Shown here: piece by piece, positions 1 to 9,984 of the stretch
How positions within the stretch are numbered: position 1 is the stretch's first letter
Layout: every line of letters begins with the position of its first letter
IMG/VR virus record: IMGVR_UViG_2740892442_000016
Reading direction: 5' to 3' (one strand)
Length of the DNA stretch: 9,984 nt
From: a virus
Taxonomy: Duplodnaviria > Heunggongvirae > Uroviricota > Caudoviricetes
Position numbers and translations under genes: made by a program
The notes under the pieces: model-generated
What the model saw: the letters and a program-made list of their open reading frames with translations, nothing else
Told to the model about the DNA's origin: nothing
The model's database searches: none

Positions 1-600
1 ATGCAAATTGGCTATATTCGTGTGTCAACAAACGACCAGAACACGGATTTACAACGCAATGCACTGAACTGCGCAGGATGTGAACTGATTTTTGAAGATA
101 AAATCAGCGGAACGAAATCAACCAGACCGGGATTGAAAAAACTGCTCAGAACGCTATCAGAAGGAGATACGCTGGTTGTCTGGAAGCTGGACAGACTGGG
201 CAGAAGTATGAAACACCTGATCACGCTTATTGAGGAATTGCGGGAAAAAGGTGTTAATTTCCGTAGTCTGACGGACAGCATTGACACGTCAACACCCATG
301 GGGCGTTTCTTTTTTCACGTCATGGGGGCTTTAGCCGAAATGGAACGTGAATTAATTGTAGAACGTACACTGGCCGGGCTGGCAGCAGCACGCGCACAAG
401 GACGCATTGGCGGACGTCGCCCGAAGTTGACAAAAGAACAACACGAGCAAATAGCAAGGCTGATTAAAAACGGTCATGACAGGAAACAACTGGCGATCAT
501 TTACGACATCGGCATATCGACGATTTATCGTTATCACCCTGTAGGCGATATACAGGCTGAAGCAACAACCAGGCAGACTCAGGAAAATGAAAACCGCTAA
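1..600 (+). CDS. Serine recombinase, DNA invertase of the Hin/Gin/Pin/Cin family
   Basis: 199-aa ORF starting MQIGYIRVSTNDQNTDLQRNAL with the catalytic-serine N-terminus, the GDTLVVWKLDRLGRS and MGRFFFHVMGALAEMERELI blocks and a C-terminal helix-turn-helix (GRIGGRRPKLTKEQHEQI), all matching my recollection of Hin/Pin. Confidence 0.9.
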   Translation: MQIGYIRVSTNDQNTDLQRNALNCAGCELIFEDKISGTKSTRPGLKKLLRTLSEGDTLVVWKLDRLGRSMKHLITLIEELREKGVNFRSLTDSIDTSTPMGRFFFHVMGALAEMERELIVERTLAGLAAARAQGRIGGRRPKLTKEQHEQIARLIKNGHDRKQLAIIYDIGISTIYRYHPVGDIQAEATTRQTQENENR

Positions 601-626: not shown

Positions 627-1121
627 TCAAAACAGCCCTTTAACGGAGCTGACCGCGCTGTTAAGGGATGATGTGACCTTATCTTTGAAGCCGGACAGCA
701 TATCACTGAACGATGAGGATTGCAGGCGCTCCCGCAAATCCTCATCACAGCGTTCAAGGGTCAGTGAAAATTCTATCTTTTTCGCCTTACCGTAGCGATC
801 AAACTCGGAACGGGTCGTATTCGTTTCGGTCAGGACATACATGCCGTAAATCTGCCCGACACCATCAATCAGAGGCCAGGGGCGTCCTGTATATGCCTGC
901 GTGGTCAGCAACGAAAGCGACACTTCGCCACCTGTAATTTCAGGATAAAGCACGCCTGAAAGCACGATGCGATCATCACCTGCACCGATATACTGCCAGC
1001 TTGCTGAACGGTTAACGCGTTCATTTTTCACATGCCGCCAGCTTTTGCTTTGCTGTAACTGCTGATGCGGCAACGTGCGCAGCTCAAAAACAAACATGCC
1101 GTAGATCATCATCATGGCCAT
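627..1121 (-). CDS. U: Phage tail protein U (P2 gpU / Mu N-like)
   Basis: 164-aa ORF directly after the tape measure gene (T stop 1128-1130, U ATG 1121-1119, GAGGAG RBS inside the T 3' end); N-terminus MMMIYGMFVFEL...LSGVLYPEITGG resembles gpU as recalled. Confidence 0.8.
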   Translation of the reverse strand: MAMMMIYGMFVFELRTLPHQQLQQSKSWRHVKNERVNRSASWQYIGAGDDRIVLSGVLYPEITGGEVSLSLLTTQAYTGRPWPLIDGVGQIYGMYVLTETNTTRSEFDRYGKAKKIEFSLTLERCDEDLRERLQSSSFSDMLSGFKDKVTSSLNSAVSSVKGLF

Positions 1122-1127
1122 GACTCC

Positions 1128-4049
1128 TCAATCTTTATCGTAAAAACTGCCACGCCCGGCACGGGCGCGCCGTTCCATTTCTGCCCTGACCATTTCACCG
1201 ACCAGTTTCGCCAGTTCGCGGGGATTCTGCGTAACAACGTTATGCAGATGAACATGAATTTCACCACCAAATCCGGAGGCAACAGGCTCCCGGTTACGGG
1301 AAGTTACAGGAACTGATGCCACTGGCGATCGTATGGCCTCCGCCACCGGGCGGGAGCTGGCCGCAACAACAGGGACCAGCGCCGGAGGCAGCGGAGCCGG
1401 GACCACGGGTGTGATATTAATTGCGGGGGCAGGCTTACTGACCTGCGCAATCTTCCGCTCCTGCCACTCCCCACCAGGGACCAGCGCCAGAGGCAGCGGA
1501 GCAGGGACCACGGGTGTGATATTAATTGCGGAGGCAGGCTTACTGACCTGCGCAATCTTCCGCTCCTGCCACTCCCCACGAACGGCAAGTGCGCGGGGCA
1601 GGTTCTTAAAGACAATATCACCGGGGCCAATGCGTTTTTTCGTCTCATCAACCAGCTTACCTGTGTTATCAGCAATTTTGCTGAGTCTGCGTAGCGTACC
1701 GGTATTGCTGTCTGTGAGCGGTTTGTTGTCTTTGGGTTTATCGCCTCCGGTGCCATTGCCATTTTCCGCAGACTTCGGCGGATTGATTTTCGCAAGGTCT
1801 CCCTGAAACAGAGCAACCTTGTCCTGAAGAATGGCCGCACGCTGTGCGTCTTCAATTTTCTTGCGCGCCCTTTCCGCTTCATCCGGAAGGACACCAAGTT
1901 TTTCAAGTATCCACGCCAGCGTATCCAGTAGCATTTTTGCAGGTGTCAGAACAAGCTGTAACGCACCGCCAAGAACGTTACCGAATATCTCGCCAGCACT
2001 GGTACATTTATCCAGCGTTTCCTTGCTGGACTCCATCGGTGACAGCAGCGATTTAAACCAGTTAAAGACCTGAATAATCCCATCGCGCACGACATCAAAA
2101 ACAGGACCGAACCGTTCAAAGGTTTCGCGCAACGGAGCCAGTCGTTCCATAATCCCGTTGAACACCCCGATATAAAACGCCTTGATGGGTTCCCAGTATT
2201 TCCAGATGAGAACTGCCGCAGCCACAAACGCGGCAACAATCAATCCGACCGGACTGAACAGCGCCCCGATAGCGCCACCCAGCAACGAGATGGAACCTGT
2301 TACCATTCCCCATAGTGCTGGCAGCACCCTGACGACATTCATTGATCCTGTCAGGAGAGAAAAACCGAGACGTAACGTAGCCAGCTTCCCGTGAAGCACC
2401 CCAATAACCAGAGACAACGAACCAACCGTTGCTGTTGTCGCCAGCAGTGCGCCTCCCGCTATCAGTAACTGGCGCGTCAGTACCGGATGGGCCTGCGCCA
2501 GCGCCGTCACCTTTGAGACCACCCGCGTGAGCCACTGCGTGACAGAACGCAGCGGACCGTCAATCAGATCTGCAATGCGGATGCGCAACCCTTCCCATGC
2601 ACTGCCGAGTGATTTCAGATCGCCATCAAGGTTGTTGGCCATAACCTTTGCCGTGCGTTCAGCCTCACCGCGTGCGCCCTCAAGTTCTTTTCTCAGTTTG
2701 GGTAAGGAACCGTCACCCGCCGCATCAACGAGTGCCATAAACGATGTGAAAGCCTCTTCCCCGGCGATGTCCTTAAAGAAGGATACCCGGTCAACTTCCC
2801 CGTATTTGCGGGTAGCTTTATAAAGGTCAGCCAGCAGATCTTCCATCGGGCGCATTTTGCCCCCGGCATCCGAGACGGACACGCCCAGCTCTTTCAGAGC
2901 TTCTGCCGCCGCCTTTGGCGGTGATGCCAGACGAGCCAGGCTGGCACGCATTGCCGTCCCGGCATCACTCCCTCTGATGCCCATATTCGCCAGCACGCCC
3001 GCCATCGCTGCGGCCTGCTCCAGCGATATCCCCAGCTTACCCGCCACCGGACCGGCATATTTCATGGTTTCGCCCAGTGCGCGAAGGTCAGTGTTGGTAC
3101 GGGTAAACGCTGCGGTGAGTGTGTCTCCGACCCGGTCCATCTGGTCAGCAGAAAGGCCGAACTGCGTCAGGATATTTGAGCCAATATCTGCCGTCTCGCC
3201 GAGATCCATACCGCCAGCCGTTGCCATGCTCAGTACGCCGGGAAGCGCAGCCTGAATGGCCTGCGGAGTGAAGCCTGCCATTGCAAGAAATGCCTGCCCA
3301 CTGGCGGCATCGCCTGCGGTGAACTGCGTTTCAGAGCCAAGTTTTAACGCCTGCTCACGCAGCGCCTTAAACTGCGGGCTGTTTTTGTCGATTCGCGTCA
3401 GTGCCTGAACGCGGGACATCTCTTTCCCGAACCCGATCGCAGGCTGCAAAAAACGCCCGGCAGCATAGCCGCCAGCCGCTGCCGCACCAATTGCCAGCGC
3501 ACCACCTGTTTTCAGTTTTCCTGCTGTTTCCTGCGCGCGCGAATACCGCTCACGCGCACGCGTTACACGCGCAAGCGCCTGCCGTTCGCGTTCAAGCTGA
3601 TTGTTGTACTGTTCGGTGCGTCTGATAGCCTGCTGGATGGTGTTATCGCTGCCTGTCAGGGAAATGCCGTGGCGTTTCAGCTCTCCGCCAAGCTCCCGCA
3701 TTTTCTGAATTTCCCGTGTGCGCGATTCATTCAGGCGTTCAAGCCGGGTGCTTAACTGCTGCATCAGCTTTTGTTGTTTTTCGCTGAGCACTGTACCCGT
3801 GCGTTGTAACTGATTAAGGGCGTTAAGCTGGCGTCGTGCTTTCACGATGCCAGCATCCGCTTTACTGACAGCGTCACGGGCGCGCTCAAATGAACGCGCC
3901 TGACGCTCGAGATTTTTGATCGCCCCCTGCGTTCGCTGGATGGAGTCACCAAACTGCCCCATCAGACGGCGGGCGTTTTCGGCAGGCCGGGTCAGCCTGT
4001 CAACGGCGCTGAAAGCGACCCGGATATCAAGAGTCTTCATTGTCTGCAT
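1128..4049 (-). CDS. T: Tail tape measure protein (P2 gpT-like)
   Basis: Long ORF, about 970-980 aa, with coiled-coil-like N-terminal part, Ala/Gly-rich hydrophobic middle and a Pro-rich C-terminal part; sits between E/E' and U. Start uncertain: ATG at 4049 or 4040, or GTG at 4076; the E+E' product overlaps the start as in P2. Confidence 0.85.
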   Translation of the reverse strand: MQTMKTLDIRVAFSAVDRLTRPAENARRLMGQFGDSIQRTQGAIKNLERQARSFERARDAVSKADAGIVKARRQLNALNQLQRTGTVLSEKQQKLMQQLSTRLERLNESRTREIQKMRELGGELKRHGISLTGSDNTIQQAIRRTEQYNNQLERERQALARVTRARERYSRAQETAGKLKTGGALAIGAAAAGGYAAGRFLQPAIGFGKEMSRVQALTRIDKNSPQFKALREQALKLGSETQFTAGDAASGQAFLAMAGFTPQAIQAALPGVLSMATAGGMDLGETADIGSNILTQFGLSADQMDRVGDTLTAAFTRTNTDLRALGETMKYAGPVAGKLGISLEQAAAMAGVLANMGIRGSDAGTAMRASLARLASPPKAAAEALKELGVSVSDAGGKMRPMEDLLADLYKATRKYGEVDRVSFFKDIAGEEAFTSFMALVDAAGDGSLPKLRKELEGARGEAERTAKVMANNLDGDLKSLGSAWEGLRIRIADLIDGPLRSVTQWLTRVVSKVTALAQAHPVLTRQLLIAGGALLATTATVGSLSLVIGVLHGKLATLRLGFSLLTGSMNVVRVLPALWGMVTGSISLLGGAIGALFSPVGLIVAAFVAAAVLIWKYWEPIKAFYIGVFNGIMERLAPLRETFERFGPVFDVVRDGIIQVFNWFKSLLSPMESSKETLDKCTSAGEIFGNVLGGALQLVLTPAKMLLDTLAWILEKLGVLPDEAERARKKIEDAQRAAILQDKVALFQGDLAKINPPKSAENGNGTGGDKPKDNKPLTDSNTGTLRRLSKIADNTGKLVDETKKRIGPGDIVFKNLPRALAVRGEWQERKIAQVSKPASAINITPVVPAPLPLALVPGGEWQERKIAQVSKPAPAINITPVVPAPLPPALVPVVAASSRPVAEAIRSPVASVPVTSRNREPVASGFGGEIHVHLHNVVTQNPRELAKLVGEMVRAEMERRARAGRGSFYDKD
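1371..1580. repeat. In-frame 105-bp tandem duplication (2 copies, 4 mismatches) inside the tape measure gene
   Basis: Copy 1 at 1371-1475 and copy 2 at 1476-1580 align base by base; they encode a repeated 35-aa unit GEWQERKIAQVSKPA(S/P)AINITPVVPAPLP(L/P)ALVP. Confidence 0.9.
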
Positions 4050-4556
4050 TCCCGCTGCGAAGTGCCGCCCGCTCACGCCAGCTAACCACTTCGCCGGGCG
4101 TCATCATGAAGATTTCGGCGGGCGACCAGTTAAAAATAACGGCAATATCTGCCACAAAGTCTTCTATGTGCTCAAAGCACACAACCGTGATCAGGCTTCC
4201 GTCGCCTGTTCGTTCTTCCCGCCAGAGTCCGCACCGCTCAAAAAATTTACGGCAACCACACATAACTGAATAAAGTCACGGGATGCCATTTTTTTGATCG
4301 TCACTTCATCCAGTCGCGGTGATGTCACGCGTGACAGCAGCGTAAACATGGATTCCGCTTTCAGATTCAGCACATCAGACAACGACAAATCTCGCAGAGA
4401 TCCAGCCTGCTCAATAGCTCCGGTGATCTCCACATACGTGATTTTTTCGCCGCCTCGCTCAATTGGTTGGGTAAGTTTTACGCCACGCTCACTGGTTTCT
4501 TTCACAGTGTCAGTAACTACCGTGTTTTCGGTATCGATGTTTTTCGTCTCTTTCAT
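4027..4556 (-). CDS. E+E': E+E' fusion made by programmed -1 ribosomal frameshift at 4245-4239; about 176 aa, overlapping the start of T
   Basis: Minus-strand heptamer T_TTT_TTG is in the E zero frame (codons AAT TTT TTG = N F L). The -1 frame is open from 4275 to the stop at 4029-4027 and reads KFFERCG... after the slip. Confidence 0.65.
4191..4556 (-). CDS. E: Tail assembly chaperone (P2 gpE-like), zero-frame product
   Basis: 121-aa ORF between FII and T with AAAGGAG RBS 8 nt upstream of the ATG at 4556; contains the slippery heptamer near its 3' end. Confidence 0.7.
   Translation of the reverse strand: MKETKNIDTENTVVTDTVKETSERGVKLTQPIERGGEKITYVEITGAIEQAGSLRDLSLSDVLNLKAESMFTLLSRVTSPRLDEVTIKKMASRDFIQLCVVAVNFLSGADSGGKNEQATEA
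4239..4245 (-). other. Slippery heptamer TTTTTTG for the E/E' -1 frameshift
   Basis: Seen in sequence; it is the same heptamer I recall for the P2 E/E' frameshift site. Confidence 0.6.
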
Positions 4557-4610
4557 CAGGAAACTCCTTTCAGTCAGAGGCGACGCACTGCGCCGCCTGC
4601 ATATTACTTA

Positions 4611-5123
4611 TCAGCCAAGCCCAAGCGCGGAACGGATACGGTCAGGCACAATGTCCTTGCCGTCCTTCCGGTAAATGAAGTTCAGCAGGTCAATCTCCCA
4701 CAACGGGCGATCGTTAACACTCAGCTTGTAGTAGGTGTTTTTAATGGCGTAAGTGTGTGATGTGGCTTCGCCCTGTTTGGCTTCCCCCATATCAATTTCC
4801 GTCACACGTCCGCGCATTTCGACTTCATACAGGTCGCTTTCTGCATCGGTGTAGTATTCACCCGCAAAACGCAGCAGCGTGCCGTCAATCGTGCCGCCAT
4901 ACTTAAGGAACAGCTCACGAACTGCGCCCCCCATGACAAAGCTCGCATCAAGCGCGGAGTCGTCCAGACCGAGATCAATACTTACCGCACCCATCATGCC
5001 ACCACCCCGGTAGCTGTCGGTTTTGCGCGTCAGTTTAGGCAGAGTGACGGACGTCACCTTACCCACTTCGTTTTCACCATCCACAAACAGCGTAAAAAAG
5101 CGAAGATGTTTTGGTACAGCCAT
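4611..5123 (-). CDS. FII: Major tail tube protein (P2 gpFII-like)
   Basis: 170-aa ORF starting MAVPKHLRFFTLFVDG...VTSVTLPKLTRK; its ATG overlaps the sheath stop in a TGATG junction at 5121-5125. Confidence 0.85.
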   Translation of the reverse strand: MAVPKHLRFFTLFVDGENEVGKVTSVTLPKLTRKTDSYRGGGMMGAVSIDLGLDDSALDASFVMGGAVRELFLKYGGTIDGTLLRFAGEYYTDAESDLYEVEMRGRVTEIDMGEAKQGEATSHTYAIKNTYYKLSVNDRPLWEIDLLNFIYRKDGKDIVPDRIRSALGLG

Positions 5124-6306
5124 CAGGCACCTCCCAGCACCGCAAATGCGGGACCAAAGAATTCATCAGTAAACGACTGGTAAAGCTCCATGTCTTCCAG
5201 CGGGGGAACTGGCGTATATTTGTAGCGAATACGCACACGTCCCTGACGTAAACCCGTGGTGCTGTTATCCACCACGTCATACCAGCACTCCGCGCCAATC
5301 AGTTTCCCGGCAGTAACCAGTGAATCCAGTTTTGCCCTGATGGCACTGATAACATCCTTCACGTTCGCAGGCGTCAGTGGACTGTCGATGGTTTCAAACT
5401 GCGCTTCCGCAATTGAATCAGCCAGCACCTGTGCGGTTCGGGTATACACCTCAAAGATGTAGGCGTTCGTTTCCGGTGTGCGGTTGCCCCAGAAGCGGAA
5501 CCCGTTACGACGAATAATGGTCGTGATTTCTTTGTTGTTAAGGCTGTTGGCATCGCTGTCTTCGGCCTGCAACGACCAGAACACATGCCGGGACATCCCC
5601 AGCACATTTTTAACCGGAACGTTGGACAGTGATTTGTGCCAGCCCTGCTCATGGTCAATGTACGCACGAAGGCCGCACGCATAAGCAGGCGCGGGGAACG
5701 TTTCGTTTTTGCCACTTTTCGGGTTGTAGGCGATGAAGTCCGGCCATAAGAGCATCACCTCACGTTCGTTGAATTTCTGGCGGTAGGTAATTGCCTCTGC
5801 CATCGTGTTACAGCCATGACATGAGGCATACACAAACGCGCGCAGTTTACCCGCAATCACGCACAGGGATTTTGTCACCGCCTCCGTGTCCAGCTCCGGC
5901 GCGGCCAGAATACGCGGACGGTATCCGATGCTTTCATCCTGCTCTGCAACAAGCAGCGCATACATCCCCGTATAGCTGCCGTCAGATTCAGAACCACCGA
6001 TAACCAGTTGATCCTGCGTCTTTCCGTTTTCTTCTTTGTGTTCAGCCACGCGAACGACGATCACCTTTGTGCTCACCTGGTCTGCGATGGCCTTAAGCGC
6101 ACGATAAAGCGTCCCCGTTGTCCCGCATTTTCCCAGCACGTCATTGACGCGGGTCAGCAGTGTGGCTTGTTCAGCGGGAACAGCTTCGCGTCCGCATCAT
6201 CCGCCGTTGCCACGATACCGATAACGCTGGAATCAACATCGTTAATCGCTGTTACCAGGTCGGTACTTTCCGTAACACGGGCACCATGAAAACGAGTTTC
6301 ACTCAT
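5123..6306 (-). CDS. FI: Tail sheath protein (P2 gpFI-like), interrupted by an apparent 1-nt frameshift near 6157-6165; possible pseudogene or sequencing error
   Basis: ATG at 6306 gives MSETRFHGARVTE...DADAKLFPLNKPHC then TGA at 6156-6154. The rest of the sheath (LLTRVNDVLGKCGTTGTLYRALKAIADQ... to the stop at 5123) continues in another frame that opens after 6196. Combined length of about 393 codons matches a full sheath. Confidence 0.8.
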
Positions 6307-6463
6307 AGCTTCAGCCCCTTGTATCCGTTAAATGATTCGGCAACAATCATCACCCACCACGCGCGTAATCTCACCCCTGCGCCGTTCTCCCGCCACGGCG
6401 ACAACAAAAAGCAGTAACCCCCTCCGCACGCACATGCGACCATGCCGCACAGGGAGGGAGCAG

Positions 6464-7573
6464 ATGACCGACACCACCATGCAATTGCTCAGTCAGGGCA
6501 CAGACACCGTGAAAATGCCGGATTTTGATATTCTCGCGGAGGGTAAAACGCTGTCAGGCGTGGCAGAGCGCCTGATGAGCCTGTCACTGACCGACAACCG
6601 GGGATTTGAGGCGGACCAGCTCACCATCACGCTGGATGATGCGGATGGTCAGTTGCAGCTACCGCCACGGGGCGCGCGCCTGACGGTTCTCATTGGCTGG
6701 AAGGGAGAACCGCTGACAGAAAAAGGCACTTACATTGTTGATGAAATCGCTCACGAAGGACCGCCGGACAGGCTGACTGTTTCAGCCAGAAGCGCAGATT
6801 TTCGGGATGAATTTAACGTTAAACGTGAGGTGTCCTGGCATGATGTGACCGTTGAGCGTGTGGTATCCGCCATCGCTCATCGGTATGGTCTGAAACCGCA
6901 AATCAGCGAAATGCTGATGGATATCGAAATCGACCACGCCGACCAGACCGAAGAAAGCGACATGTCCTTCCTTACGCGCATGGCGGAAATGCTGGGCGCA
7001 ATCACCACGGTAAAAAGCGGCAATCTGTTATTCATCATGCCAGGTGGTGGCGTGAACGCACAGGGCCAGCCGTTGCCCTCGTTCGCCATTACACGCAGCA
7101 GCGGCGATCGCCATCAGTTCCGCATTGCTGACCGCGAGGCGTATACGGGGGTACGCGCCTACTGGCTTGATCTTAATTACGGGAAAAAGAAAAAAGTCAG
7201 CGTGAAACGCCGTAAACCGCCAAAACCCAAAAAGGAGAAAAGCAGCAGCCGTGAAGGTGATTATATGGAAGGCGCGGAAGGCAATGTGTTTGTGTTACGC
7301 AAGACTTATCAGAACGAGCAGGCAGCAAGACGCGCAGCGGCGGCAAAGTGGCAGCAGCTACAACGCGGAGCCGCATCATTCTCCATCACGCTGGCATGTG
7401 GTCGTGCAGAACTCTACCCCGAAATGCATGGCACGGTAACAGGATTTAAAAGCGAGATTGATAATCAGGACTGGATTATTGCAAAAGCCGAGCACACCAT
7501 CGATAACAGCGGCTTTACCACGCAGCTTGAGCTTGAGGCAAAAATCTCGGAATGGATAGCAGAAACAGAGTGA
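6464..7573 (+). CDS. D: Phage tail protein D (P2 gpD / late control D family)
   Basis: ORF with AGGGAGGGAG RBS at 6451-6460 and ATG at 6464. Motifs SLTDNRGFEADQL, SARSADFRDEF, ESDMSFLTRMAE and YTGVRAYW fit the gpD family as recalled. The open frame runs upstream to 6332 but has no RBS there. Confidence 0.85.
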   Translation: MTDTTMQLLSQGTDTVKMPDFDILAEGKTLSGVAERLMSLSLTDNRGFEADQLTITLDDADGQLQLPPRGARLTVLIGWKGEPLTEKGTYIVDEIAHEGPPDRLTVSARSADFRDEFNVKREVSWHDVTVERVVSAIAHRYGLKPQISEMLMDIEIDHADQTEESDMSFLTRMAEMLGAITTVKSGNLLFIMPGGGVNAQGQPLPSFAITRSSGDRHQFRIADREAYTGVRAYWLDLNYGKKKKVSVKRRKPPKPKKEKSSSREGDYMEGAEGNVFVLRKTYQNEQAARRAAAAKWQQLQRGAASFSITLACGRAELYPEMHGTVTGFKSEIDNQDWIIAKAEHTIDNSGFTTQLELEAKISEWIAETE

Positions 7574-7615
7574 GCAACTTAGAATAGCAGCAGCACCACG
7601 TTAAGGGAGGTCGCT

Positions 7616-7876
7616 ATGTTCCGTTGTCCGCTTTGTGGCGCATCTGCCCGTATCCGCACCAGTCGTCCTGAAAATGATTCAAACACCGTGCGGCAAAAGT
7701 ATTACCAGTGTAACAACCTGGAATGCGGCGTATGCTTCTCAACACTGGAAGCTTTCCATAAATTCACATCAAAACACGCCTCCGGCGTTCACTCTTCAGA
7801 AGGTATCCCGTGGCATGAGCTGCCAGCTTCACACAGGGGAAACAATCAGATGAGTTTGCCTTTACCTCAGAATTAA
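7616..7876 (+). CDS. ogr: Ogr-type zinc-finger late transcription activator
   Basis: Starts MFRCPLCGASARIRTSR...YYQCNNLEC, giving the C-X2-C-X23-C-X4-C finger; AAGGGAGG RBS 5 nt upstream. At 86 aa it has a C-terminal extension relative to P2 Ogr (about 72 aa). Confidence 0.85.
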   Translation: MFRCPLCGASARIRTSRPENDSNTVRQKYYQCNNLECGVCFSTLEAFHKFTSKHASGVHSSEGIPWHELPASHRGNNQMSLPLPQN

Positions 7877-7885
7877 CAGGCAGAA

Positions 7886-7914
7886 TTGCCGGAGTAACAA
7901 AAAAGCGATAGATT
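7886..7914 (+). promoter_or_regulatory. Candidate sigma70 promoter for the toxin mRNA (TTGCCG, 17-bp spacer, TAGATT)
   Basis: Seen in sequence just after the ogr stop. It would place the transcript start near 7921, giving a leader of about 147 nt before the toxin ATG. Confidence 0.3.
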
Positions 7915-8067
7915 ACGCGCGGGTGCCTTTCGGCTGATGGTCGGAGGGAATACCCGAAGGCCAGATGTGGAAAGGCCCCGGAAAACATTTCTGTTTAACC
8001 GAGGCCCTAACATATCTACCTTAAGCAAGTGATAGGTTAGCGCCTCTCCAACAAAGGAGCAAGCGCT

Positions 8068-8208
8068 ATGTCGCAAAAATCGCTTACGGCCATCACGTTC
8101 TGCGTGACGGTAATCCTCATCATCTGGATGCTACACGGTTCGCTGTGTGAAATACGGATGAGCTTCTGGGGAGCGGAGTTTGCGGCGTTCTTACAGTGTA
8201 AGCAGTAA
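8068..8208 (+). CDS. Hok/Gef/PndA-family type I toxin (46 aa, single transmembrane helix)
   Basis: MSQKSLTAITFCVTVILIIWMLHGSLCEIRMSFWGAEFAAFLQCKQ: hydrophobic N-terminal helix followed by the SLCEIR and E-x-AAF-L-x-C-K motifs I recall from Hok and PndA; AAAGGAG RBS 8 nt upstream. Below the 60-aa cutoff of the ORF track. Confidence 0.65.
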   Translation: MSQKSLTAITFCVTVILIIWMLHGSLCEIRMSFWGAEFAAFLQCKQ

Positions 8209-8217
8209 GGAAACCGC

Positions 8218-8239
8218 GACGGGGGAGCAATCCCCCGTC
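8218..8239 (+). other. Stable stem-loop (9-bp GC-rich stem, GCAA tetraloop) directly after the toxin stop codon
   Basis: GACGGGGGA-GCAA-TCCCCCGTC seen in sequence; no U-tract follows, so it is more likely an mRNA structural element than a terminator. Confidence 0.4.
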
Positions 8240-8296
8240 AATCGGTTGCTAAGGTTGGCTGAAGTGGCACCCTATCTCACAGACATGAACAACAAA

Positions 8297-8328
8297 CCCG
8301 CAGCGTAAGAACTGCGGGTTTTCTTTTT
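8297..8328 (+). terminator. Rho-independent terminator (CCCGCAG stem, 8-nt loop, TTTTCTTTTT tail)
   Basis: Seen in sequence; would end the toxin transcript at a total length of roughly 400 nt. Confidence 0.6.
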
Positions 8329-8336
8329 GGAACTAT

Positions 8337-8364
8337 CACTAGCTAGTGTACCGTTAACGGCACA
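8337..8364. promoter_or_regulatory. Two overlapping palindromes: CACTAGCTAGTG (perfect 12-mer) and TGTaCCGTTAACGGcACA (matches the TGT-N12-ACA dyad)
   Basis: Seen in sequence. TGT-N12-ACA is the dyad I recall for Ogr/Delta-type late activators; no clear -10 element is placed correctly on either side, so function is unassigned. Confidence 0.3.
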
Positions 8365-8396
8365 TAATGCTCGCACAACAAACCTGTTAAAAGAGA

Positions 8397-8678
8397 TTAC
8401 TCAGCATTCTCCTGCTTCCATTGCCGGATCATTTCATCGGTAACATCACCCTCATAACATACCACGTCATACCCTCCATTACGGCTATATGCACTGCGTC
8501 CACCACATCTACTACCATTCCTTGCATGATTATAAGGACACGCACAATTGCCTGGATAAGATTCAATGGATTCTTTAATTATTTCTTTTTTGATCTGAGC
8601 ATCAGACTTTCCTGTTGCTGCATATCCGCTAAAAGATACTAAACAAAGGCAGATTGCCATTAATAAACCACATCGCAT
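8397..8678 (-). CDS. Hypothetical small secreted Cys-containing protein in an AT-rich cargo segment
   Basis: The ORF is open to 8792, but the likely start is the Met at 8678 that begins a signal-peptide-like stretch (MRCGLLMAICLCLVSFSGYAA, A-A before TGK). The mature part is about 70 aa with four Cys (GNCACPYNHARNGSRCGGRSAYSRNGGYDVVCYEG). Weak RBS; local AT content is clearly higher than in the flanking phage genes. Family not recognised. Confidence 0.45.
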   Translation of the reverse strand: MRCGLLMAICLCLVSFSGYAATGKSDAQIKKEIIKESIESYPGNCACPYNHARNGSRCGGRSAYSRNGGYDVVCYEGDVTDEMIRQWKQENAE

Positions 8679-8910
8679 ACCGATACACTCTATTACTAAC
8701 CAATCATAGTCCACATCATAAAATCGAGATGAGGAGTACAATACCTTTAACAAGAAGGTGTCATAACGATAATATGTCGTGCAATTCATCAAAAAAAAGA
8801 TCTATATCAAAGAGATAGAACTCTTATCAGTGCTTCAGACATCGGCATTCGAGGCAGCAGAAAAACAGTAAATTTGACGAATTTGCCTTTTCCCAAGATG
8901 TTGTCAGATT

Positions 8911-9064
8911 AAAAAGATAGATTAGCGCAGGTACCTGTTGGTGGATTGCAGGAGGAAAAATGAAGTCGAGTGGAAAAATCCCAGAAAAATTTTTGTTTAA
9001 CAGAGGTCCTGGTTCACTATGCGAAATACGGAGGAGCTGCAGAAGAATTCTGCTTCATCCTTAG
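8911..9064 (+). pseudogene. Internally deleted paralog of the toxin locus (promoter -10, leader and toxin C-terminal segment retained; toxin transmembrane region missing)
   Basis: 8911-8935 resembles 7900-7927 (AAAAAG..ATAGATTA..GCGCAGGTACC), 8970-9010 resembles 7967-8008, and 9011-9042 resembles 8137-8170; the 128 bp between the last two in the intact copy (8009-8136) are absent. The remaining ORF (ATG 8960, stop 9062-9064) reads MKSSGKIPEKFLFNRGPGSLCEIRRSCRRILLHP. Confidence 0.45.
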
Positions 9065-9140
9065 AGTTTAAACAGCACGTGCACTACCATTGTTTCTGCA
9101 TATCGCCACACCATCGCCACTCAACCGCCATTGCACAAAA

Positions 9141-9173
9141 TACAAATACAAAAAAACCACCCGAAGGTGGTTT
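9141..9173 (-). terminator. Rho-independent terminator of the glyW-cysT-leuZ tRNA operon
   Basis: Plus-strand ACCACC-CGAA-GGTGGT hairpin (9156-9171); on the minus strand it is followed by TTTTTGTATTTG, about 45 nt past the leuZ 3' end. Confidence 0.6.
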
Positions 9174-9216
9174 CACGACACTGCTTATTGCTTTGATTTT
9201 ATTCTTATCTTTCCCA

Positions 9217-9303
9217 TGGTACCCGGAGCGGGACTTGAACCCGCACAGCGCGAACGCCGAGGGATTTTAAATCCCTTGTGTCTACCGATTCCACCATCCG
9301 GGC
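9217..9303 (-). tRNA. leuZ: tRNA-Leu (anticodon UAA), 87 nt, CCA encoded
   Basis: Reverse complement reads GCCCGGATGGTGGAATCGGTAGACACAAGGGATTTAAAATCCC...GGGTACCA: cloverleaf with long variable arm, matching E. coli leuZ as recalled. Confidence 0.92.
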
Positions 9304-9315
9304 TCGGGAAGAAAG

Positions 9316-9389
9316 TGGAGGCGCGTTCCGGAGTCGAACCGGACTAGACGGATTTGCAATCCGCTACATAACCGCTTTGTTAACGCGCC
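9316..9389 (-). tRNA. cysT: tRNA-Cys (anticodon GCA), 74 nt
   Basis: Reverse complement reads GGCGCGTTAACAAAGCGGTTATGTAGCGGATTGCAAATCCGTCTAGTCCGGTTCGACTCCGGAACGCGCCTCCA. Confidence 0.92.
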
Positions 9390-9442
9390 AAATTCTTCAG
9401 GCCTTTCAGCCAGACATCCGCTGACGCCGATGTCTTTTAAAC

Positions 9443-9519
<77 letters not shown>

Positions 9520-9669
9520 TTCATCAAGCAATCAGTTAATCACTTGATTTTATTATCGTCTGGCAATCAGTGCCGCCGTTCGATGCGTTGCATTCTACTT
9601 ACCTGGCGCGATGAGTCAACGATATTTTTCACCACTTTTGATCGTTTGCTGAAAATTGCGCCGAAACGA

Positions 9670-9984
9670 TCACTGATCAAGCAAATCTGCACGCGCAGCG
9701 CTCAAATATTGCAACATTGACCACAGAGTCAGTACCGCAGCCACAAAGAAAAGTGCAATACCGGCGTACTCAACCCAAATGTTCGGACGCCACAGCAGCC
9801 AGGCCAACGCCACCATCTGGGCAGTGGTTTTCACTTTCCCAATCCAGGAGACAGCCACGCTACTGCGTTTACCCAACTCCGCCATCCATTCGCGTAGCGC
9901 AGAAATAATAATTTCACGGGCGATCATCGTTGCCGCCGGTAAGGTCACCCACCAGCTGTGATAATGCTCGGTTACCAGCACCAT
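9670..9984 (-). CDS. pgsA: Phosphatidylglycerophosphate synthase, C-terminal 104 codons (5' part lies beyond the window end)
   Basis: Translation ...[42 protein letters not shown]...[11 protein letters not shown] matches the E. coli PgsA C-terminus as recalled; lies upstream of the tRNA operon on the same strand. Confidence 0.9.

Follow-up and report, generated by a model that had tools for sequence, protein, structure and literature searches.

A one-base frameshift in the tail sheath gene of a P88-like prophage is very probably a sequencing artefact

P88 is a mitomycin-inducible, plaque-forming phage with a contractile tail (PMC5285337). In contractile sheaths, the N-terminal part of the sheath protein gives a strand of the β-sheet mesh that connects neighboring subunits (PMC10329688). 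We analyzed a 9,984-nt stretch of DNA, called the window throughout, that shares the gene order of P88 (NC_026014, sheath SF19_gp49): invertase, U, T, E', E, tube, sheath, divergent D and hok. Order and orientation are the same and nucleotide identity is 96.5% over 6.9 kb, which places the element among the P88-like phages. Three differences stand out. In the window, one C is missing from codon 48 of the sheath gene, the tape measure gene carries two 105-bp repeats (970 aa versus 935 aa in P88) and the first 1.5 kb are only ~90% identical to P88.

Gene layout of the prophage end

Judged from its sequence, the window covers the right-hand end of a P88-like prophage (Xuanwuvirus, Peduoviridae) adjoining host genes (Table 1). 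The placement of the element at a tRNA-Leu/pgsA site is a by-product of the analysis.

Table 1. Features of the window, with positions counted from its first letter
Feature	Position	Strand	Remarks
Invertase	1-600	+	
gpU	627-1115	-	
Tape measure (T)	1128-4040	-	
E'	4027-4182	-	
E	4191-4556	-	
Tail tube (gpFII)	4611-5123	-	Intact, 170 aa, PF04985
Tail sheath gene (P2 gpFI type)	5123-6306	-	1184 nt assembled versus 1185 nt in relatives
Sheath C-terminal fragment	5123-6139	-	338-aa ORF from internal GTG, -1 frame
Sheath N-terminal fragment	6154-6306	-	ATG 6306, 50 codons, TGA 6156-6154 (ORF table, translation)
Sheath lesion	6164-6165	-	CC versus CCC (Pro48 codon) in every relative; 1-nt deletion, 3-base homopolymer
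D, gpD (baseplate hub)	6464-7573	+	Intact, 369 aa, PF05954, divergent from sheath as in P88
ogr	7616-7876	+	
hok	8068-8208	+	
tRNA-Leu	9217-9303	-	
tRNA-Cys	9316-9389	-	
tRNA-Gly	9443-9518	-	
pgsA, partial (C-terminal fragment)	9670-9984	-	104-aa ORF

The tape measure gene varies in length by whole repeats. Its 105-bp (35-aa) tandem repeat lies at 1370-1579 in the window, in two copies, and T measures 935 aa in P88 and relative L013, 970 aa in the window, L007, L008 and L010, and 1005 aa in strain 1439, L011, L012 and L014, reflecting one, two and three copies. This polymorphism in repeat number should alter tail length stepwise. Further along the same strand, at 4239-4245, sits an intact P2-type slip site, TTTTTTG, whose programmed -1 shift yields the tail chaperone E+E'.

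The baseplate hub gene appears to be annotated inconsistently across genomes. The identical gpD protein occurs in 388 blocks of the collection searched. RefSeq (PGAP) labels gpD as a 266-aa "VgrG/Pvc8 family" protein with an overlapping pseudo "hypothetical" (L004 4878-5731, L003 8107-8960). Because the 369-aa D ORF of strain 1439 is base-identical to that of the window, the mismatch looks like an inconsistency of start site or annotation and not like a broken gene. At the other edge, the source contig stops just past the invertase, 66 bp to the left of window position 1. The break falls at the tail-fibre segment, which is invertible and occurs in both orientations among relatives (L010 versus L011), and this invertibility explains why the contig ends there.

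The sheath gene and its lesion

A single base divides the sheath gene into two frames. The N-terminal ORF translates to MSETRFHGARVTESTDLVTAINDVDSSVIGIVATADDADAKLFPLNKPHC followed by a stop; it begins MSETRF and ends PLNKPHC, and the final two residues (H and C) of the 50-codon fragment are out-of-frame products. The -1 frame reads QATLLTRVNDVLGKCG and on to the end of the sheath. This sheath frame is open from 6196 downwards, and its 338-aa ORF ends one base inside the tail tube gene. Alignment with P88 and PhiR44_2 contains exactly one gap in 225 columns, with AAGCCCACACTG in the phages and AAGCCACACTG in the window. In codons, P88 and PhiR44_2 read AAG CCC ACA CTG (K P T L) where the window reads AAG CCA CAC TGC TGA. 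On the + strand, the window has GG at 6164-6165 where GGG is expected.

A preliminary description of this DNA, made from its letters alone, had read the locus as a tail sheath gene split by one missing base, and that reading holds. The single alignment gap against P88 and PhiR44_2 bears out the missing base, the frames overlap at AAG CCA CAC TGC TGA exactly as described, and the start, length and stop given for the N-terminal fragment agree with the ORF table and its translation. The description had also proposed aligning intact sheath genes to find the indel, and doing so assigned it to one C of the CCC of Pro48. Its remaining part in another frame is real, comprising the 338-aa ORF within 346 codons 3' of the lesion, but the total needs a small correction: an intact sheath gene has 394 codons, not 393.

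Restoring one base restores a complete sheath. As assembled, the window contains no single uninterrupted ORF of ~394 codons; re-inserting a C at codon 48 in silico produces one, and the resulting 394-aa protein is identical to the L007 sheath. The sheath region shares 98% nucleotide identity with the sheath gene of P88. The restored protein scores 45, 71.6 and 39.6 bits for the Pfam domains PF22671, PF04984 and PF17482, against gathering cut-offs of 27, 31.4 and 26.9, which upholds the original call of a P2-type tail sheath. On these scores, the restored protein is a predicted member of the Phage_sheath_1 family. The 338-aa fragment retains PF04984 and PF17482, while PF22671 falls under its cut-off. 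Since both pieces jointly match the sheath domains and more than 1300 intact homologues, the split is, by homology, not a chance pattern. An exact sequence look-up of the 50-aa N-terminal product found no record, as would be expected if the gene is treated as a pseudogene.

Among solved structures, the closest is the sheath of the R2 pyocin, PA0622 (PDB 3J9Q, 3J9R), with E = 2.6e-47 for 3J9Q. The two proteins are homologous over residues 6-384 and belong to the contractile-sheath fold family. Unlike the window's sheath, PA0622 is a Pseudomonas tailocin protein, distant in sequence, and the comparison serves only for judging the effect of losing the N-terminus.

Source assembly, internal control and relatives

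The window derives from an Ion Torrent draft genome. It is 100% identical across all 9984 bases to positions 67-10050 of contig JUDY01000058.1 (GCA_001630845.1), on which no sheath gene is called. JUDY00000000 is Escherichia coli RCE04; this "meta-assembly" combines isolates from a single patient with Crohn's disease and was built from Ion Torrent PGM reads with MIRA 4.0 (PMC5517970). Its authors report artificial frameshifts arising from homopolymer errors and a correction that lowers artificial indels ~2.5-fold (PMC5517970); many artificial indels therefore remain.

A neighboring host gene serves as an internal control. We compared 14.1 kb of the 28.4-kb source contig with five relatives and found exactly two 1-nt deletions that break genes, each in a C run: CCC to CC in the sheath gene and GCC to GC in pgsA. 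The pgsA lesion falls in the Ala78 codon, at window-equivalent position 9985 (~10051 on the contig, ~4056 in the 14.1-kb segment), one base past the window and 3.8 kb from the sheath lesion. It splits pgsA into an 81-aa and a 104-aa ORF, of which the window contains the latter, C-terminal one; JUDY01000058.1 has no gene call for pgsA, and all five relatives have it intact at 182 aa. In wild-type E. coli pgsA is absolutely required, and null alleles are viable only alongside lpp (and rcs) suppressors (PMC8027125). Because the gene is essential, its lesion is not credible in a cultured clinical isolate and is an error. Single-base under-calls in short C runs thus persist in the source contig, with a frequency of about one per 7 kb.

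Other indels in the 14.1 kb break no gene. The tRNA-Cys/tRNA-Gly spacer differs by 1 nt, the source contig and strain 1439 sharing one length and the other four relatives the other, and compensating gap pairs occur near position 930 of the 14.1-kb segment. Homopolymer context by itself is weak evidence, because ~18% of bases fall within runs of at least 3 (45% in runs of at least 2).

Among the genomes compared, the sheath deletion occurs only in this draft. A 91-bp query centered on it matched 1333 complete E. coli genomes, with no match at 99% identity or above, so none of the 1333 carries the deletion. A 35-mer across the deletion had 0 hits among contigs of GTDB species representatives, so the source genome is not one of them. 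Searching for exact copies of the window's 970-aa tape measure protein returned three assemblies: the source draft itself, ENA ERZ27270957 (L007) and GCA_025786305.2 (L008). L007 equals the window across 9242 bases (up to position 9242) except for the missing base, and L008 differs at four positions, the missing base included. A look-up of the D protein added five more relatives, all with a 394-aa sheath. In independent data, the lesion is absent from L007, L008, L010-L014 and L004, and present only in the one Ion Torrent draft.

Strain 1439 offers the sharpest comparison. Across window positions 1490-9310 it shows zero substitutions, and the sheath indel is the sole difference, while the chromosomal flank at 9311-9961 differs by 7 substitutions in 650 bp. 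Prophage identity beside a diverged chromosome places the same phage at one tRNA-Leu site in distinct host backgrounds, which suggests that an active phage spread horizontally and recently.

Sheath genes of this family are also disrupted in nature. In a related prophage of E. coli strain CE0021a (NZ_CP119006.1), an IS4 element occupies 7019-8446, corresponding to window positions 6113-6124. The insertion, flanked by a 12-bp overlap, lies only ~40 bp from the site of the window's lesion and is a true sheath knock-out that arose naturally in the P88-like phage family.

Artefact, knock-out or recoding

We hold that the sheath frameshift is very probably a sequencing or assembly artefact, an Ion Torrent homopolymer under-call. 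A like lesion lies on the same contig, every relative lacks the sheath lesion, and the lesion is the only difference from otherwise identical prophages. The read technology is flow-based with known residual indels, the change is a 1-nt difference in length within a mononucleotide run (CCC to CC), and the companion lesion, at pgsA codon 78, hits a gene that a viable cell cannot have broken. Indels are the signature error of the Ion Torrent platform, and a prophage whose sole difference is an indel fits that signature. On this account, the CCC of Pro48 would have been read as CC, and the under-call would have survived into the MIRA draft of RCE04. The real prophage would then be an intact P88-like temperate myovirus beside tRNA-Leu with a normal 394-aa sheath, and the third C is most likely present in the actual RCE04 DNA.

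The lesion resembles Ion Torrent homopolymer artefacts in that a single-base under-call in a mononucleotide run produces an apparent frameshift. Such errors are commoner in longer runs, and both runs here are short, 3 bases in the sheath gene and 2 in pgsA. Natural sheath inactivation counts against an artefact, and so does the shortness of the sheath run, although the pgsA run is shorter still. A real and very recent loss of function, in which one C was lost from Pro48 after lysogenisation of the RCE04 lineage, is nonetheless unlikely. Its products would be a 50-aa peptide and, at most, a sheath truncated at its N-terminus and unable to polymerise, because the N-terminal strand belongs to the β-sheet that holds the sheath lattice together, and particles would be tail-less or sheath-less and non-infectious. 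The deposited sequence does carry the lesion, IS4 in CE0021a shows that relatives can lose the sheath, the N-terminal arm sits in the inter-subunit mesh of contractile sheaths (PMC10329688), and the window's protein is homologous to the R2 pyocin sheath. Yet the platform and assembler are known for exactly such an error, by their own users' account, and the essential pgsA appears broken in the same way 3.8 kb off. No further change accompanies the lesion over 7.8 kb (strain 1439) or 9.2 kb (L007), and it is unique among more than 1300 genomes. The fuller version, that Crohn's-associated RCE04 carries a freshly disabled P88-like prophage and the pgsA lesion is a separate artefact, is if anything less likely again. 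Were the deletion real, the sheath frameshift would be the element's only defect, a first step of prophage domestication caught as it happened; it would also be a commonplace loss of a prophage structural gene, private to one lineage and of no wider consequence.

A programmed -1 ribosomal frameshift or transcriptional slippage that joins both sheath ORFs has a negligible probability. A -1 shift within the ~40-nt overlap (~6196-6157) would give a near-normal sheath, and the same gene cluster already uses one, at TTTTTTG in E/E+E'. The sheath is one uninterrupted ORF in every relative, however, so the two-ORF state is not conserved, and a scan of the overlap found neither an X XXY YYZ heptamer nor a long A/T run or homopolymer tract. 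Without a slip site or conservation, recoding is effectively excluded. Re-initiation at GTG 6139 as the source of a functional truncated sheath was likewise rejected: no Shine-Dalgarno sequence is visible upstream, and the product would lose its first 56 residues, comprising the N-terminal arm and half of PF22671.

Decay of the prophage finds no support. The preliminary description had suggested that the prophage cannot make a contractile sheath and is decaying, a view that the Ion Torrent source, the equally broken essential pgsA and the absence of other decay speak against. No other degenerative change was found in the window, where U, T, E, tube, D, ogr and hok are all intact. Two further supposed signs of decay are native features. 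D, described as displaced, is divergent from and upstream of the sheath in P88 and in every relative fetched, which corrects the D-sheath arrangement from rearranged to native, and the "deleted" second toxin copy has no counterpart, P88 and all relatives having a single hok. The description was right to qualify its claim with "if real" and to call for read pile-ups. More generally, in Ion Torrent-type drafts a single-base "frameshift" in a short homopolymer should not be equated with prophage decay or pseudogenisation unless read-level or independent support accompanies it.

The nearest known elements sit at the same site. Prophages in strain 1439 (NZ_CP184045.1), ERZ27270957, GCA_025786305.2 and GCA_031646395.1 all lie beside tRNA-Leu/Cys/Gly and pgsA and are base-identical over most or all of the window's prophage part. 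In strain 1439 the prophage is complete: its ~37 kb include genes for head, lysis, baseplate, replication and integrase. It differs from the window by a third 105-bp repeat in T. Three prophage copies match the window in every other base, and, unlike the window, strain 1439 and the other copies named here all carry an intact 394-aa sheath gene.
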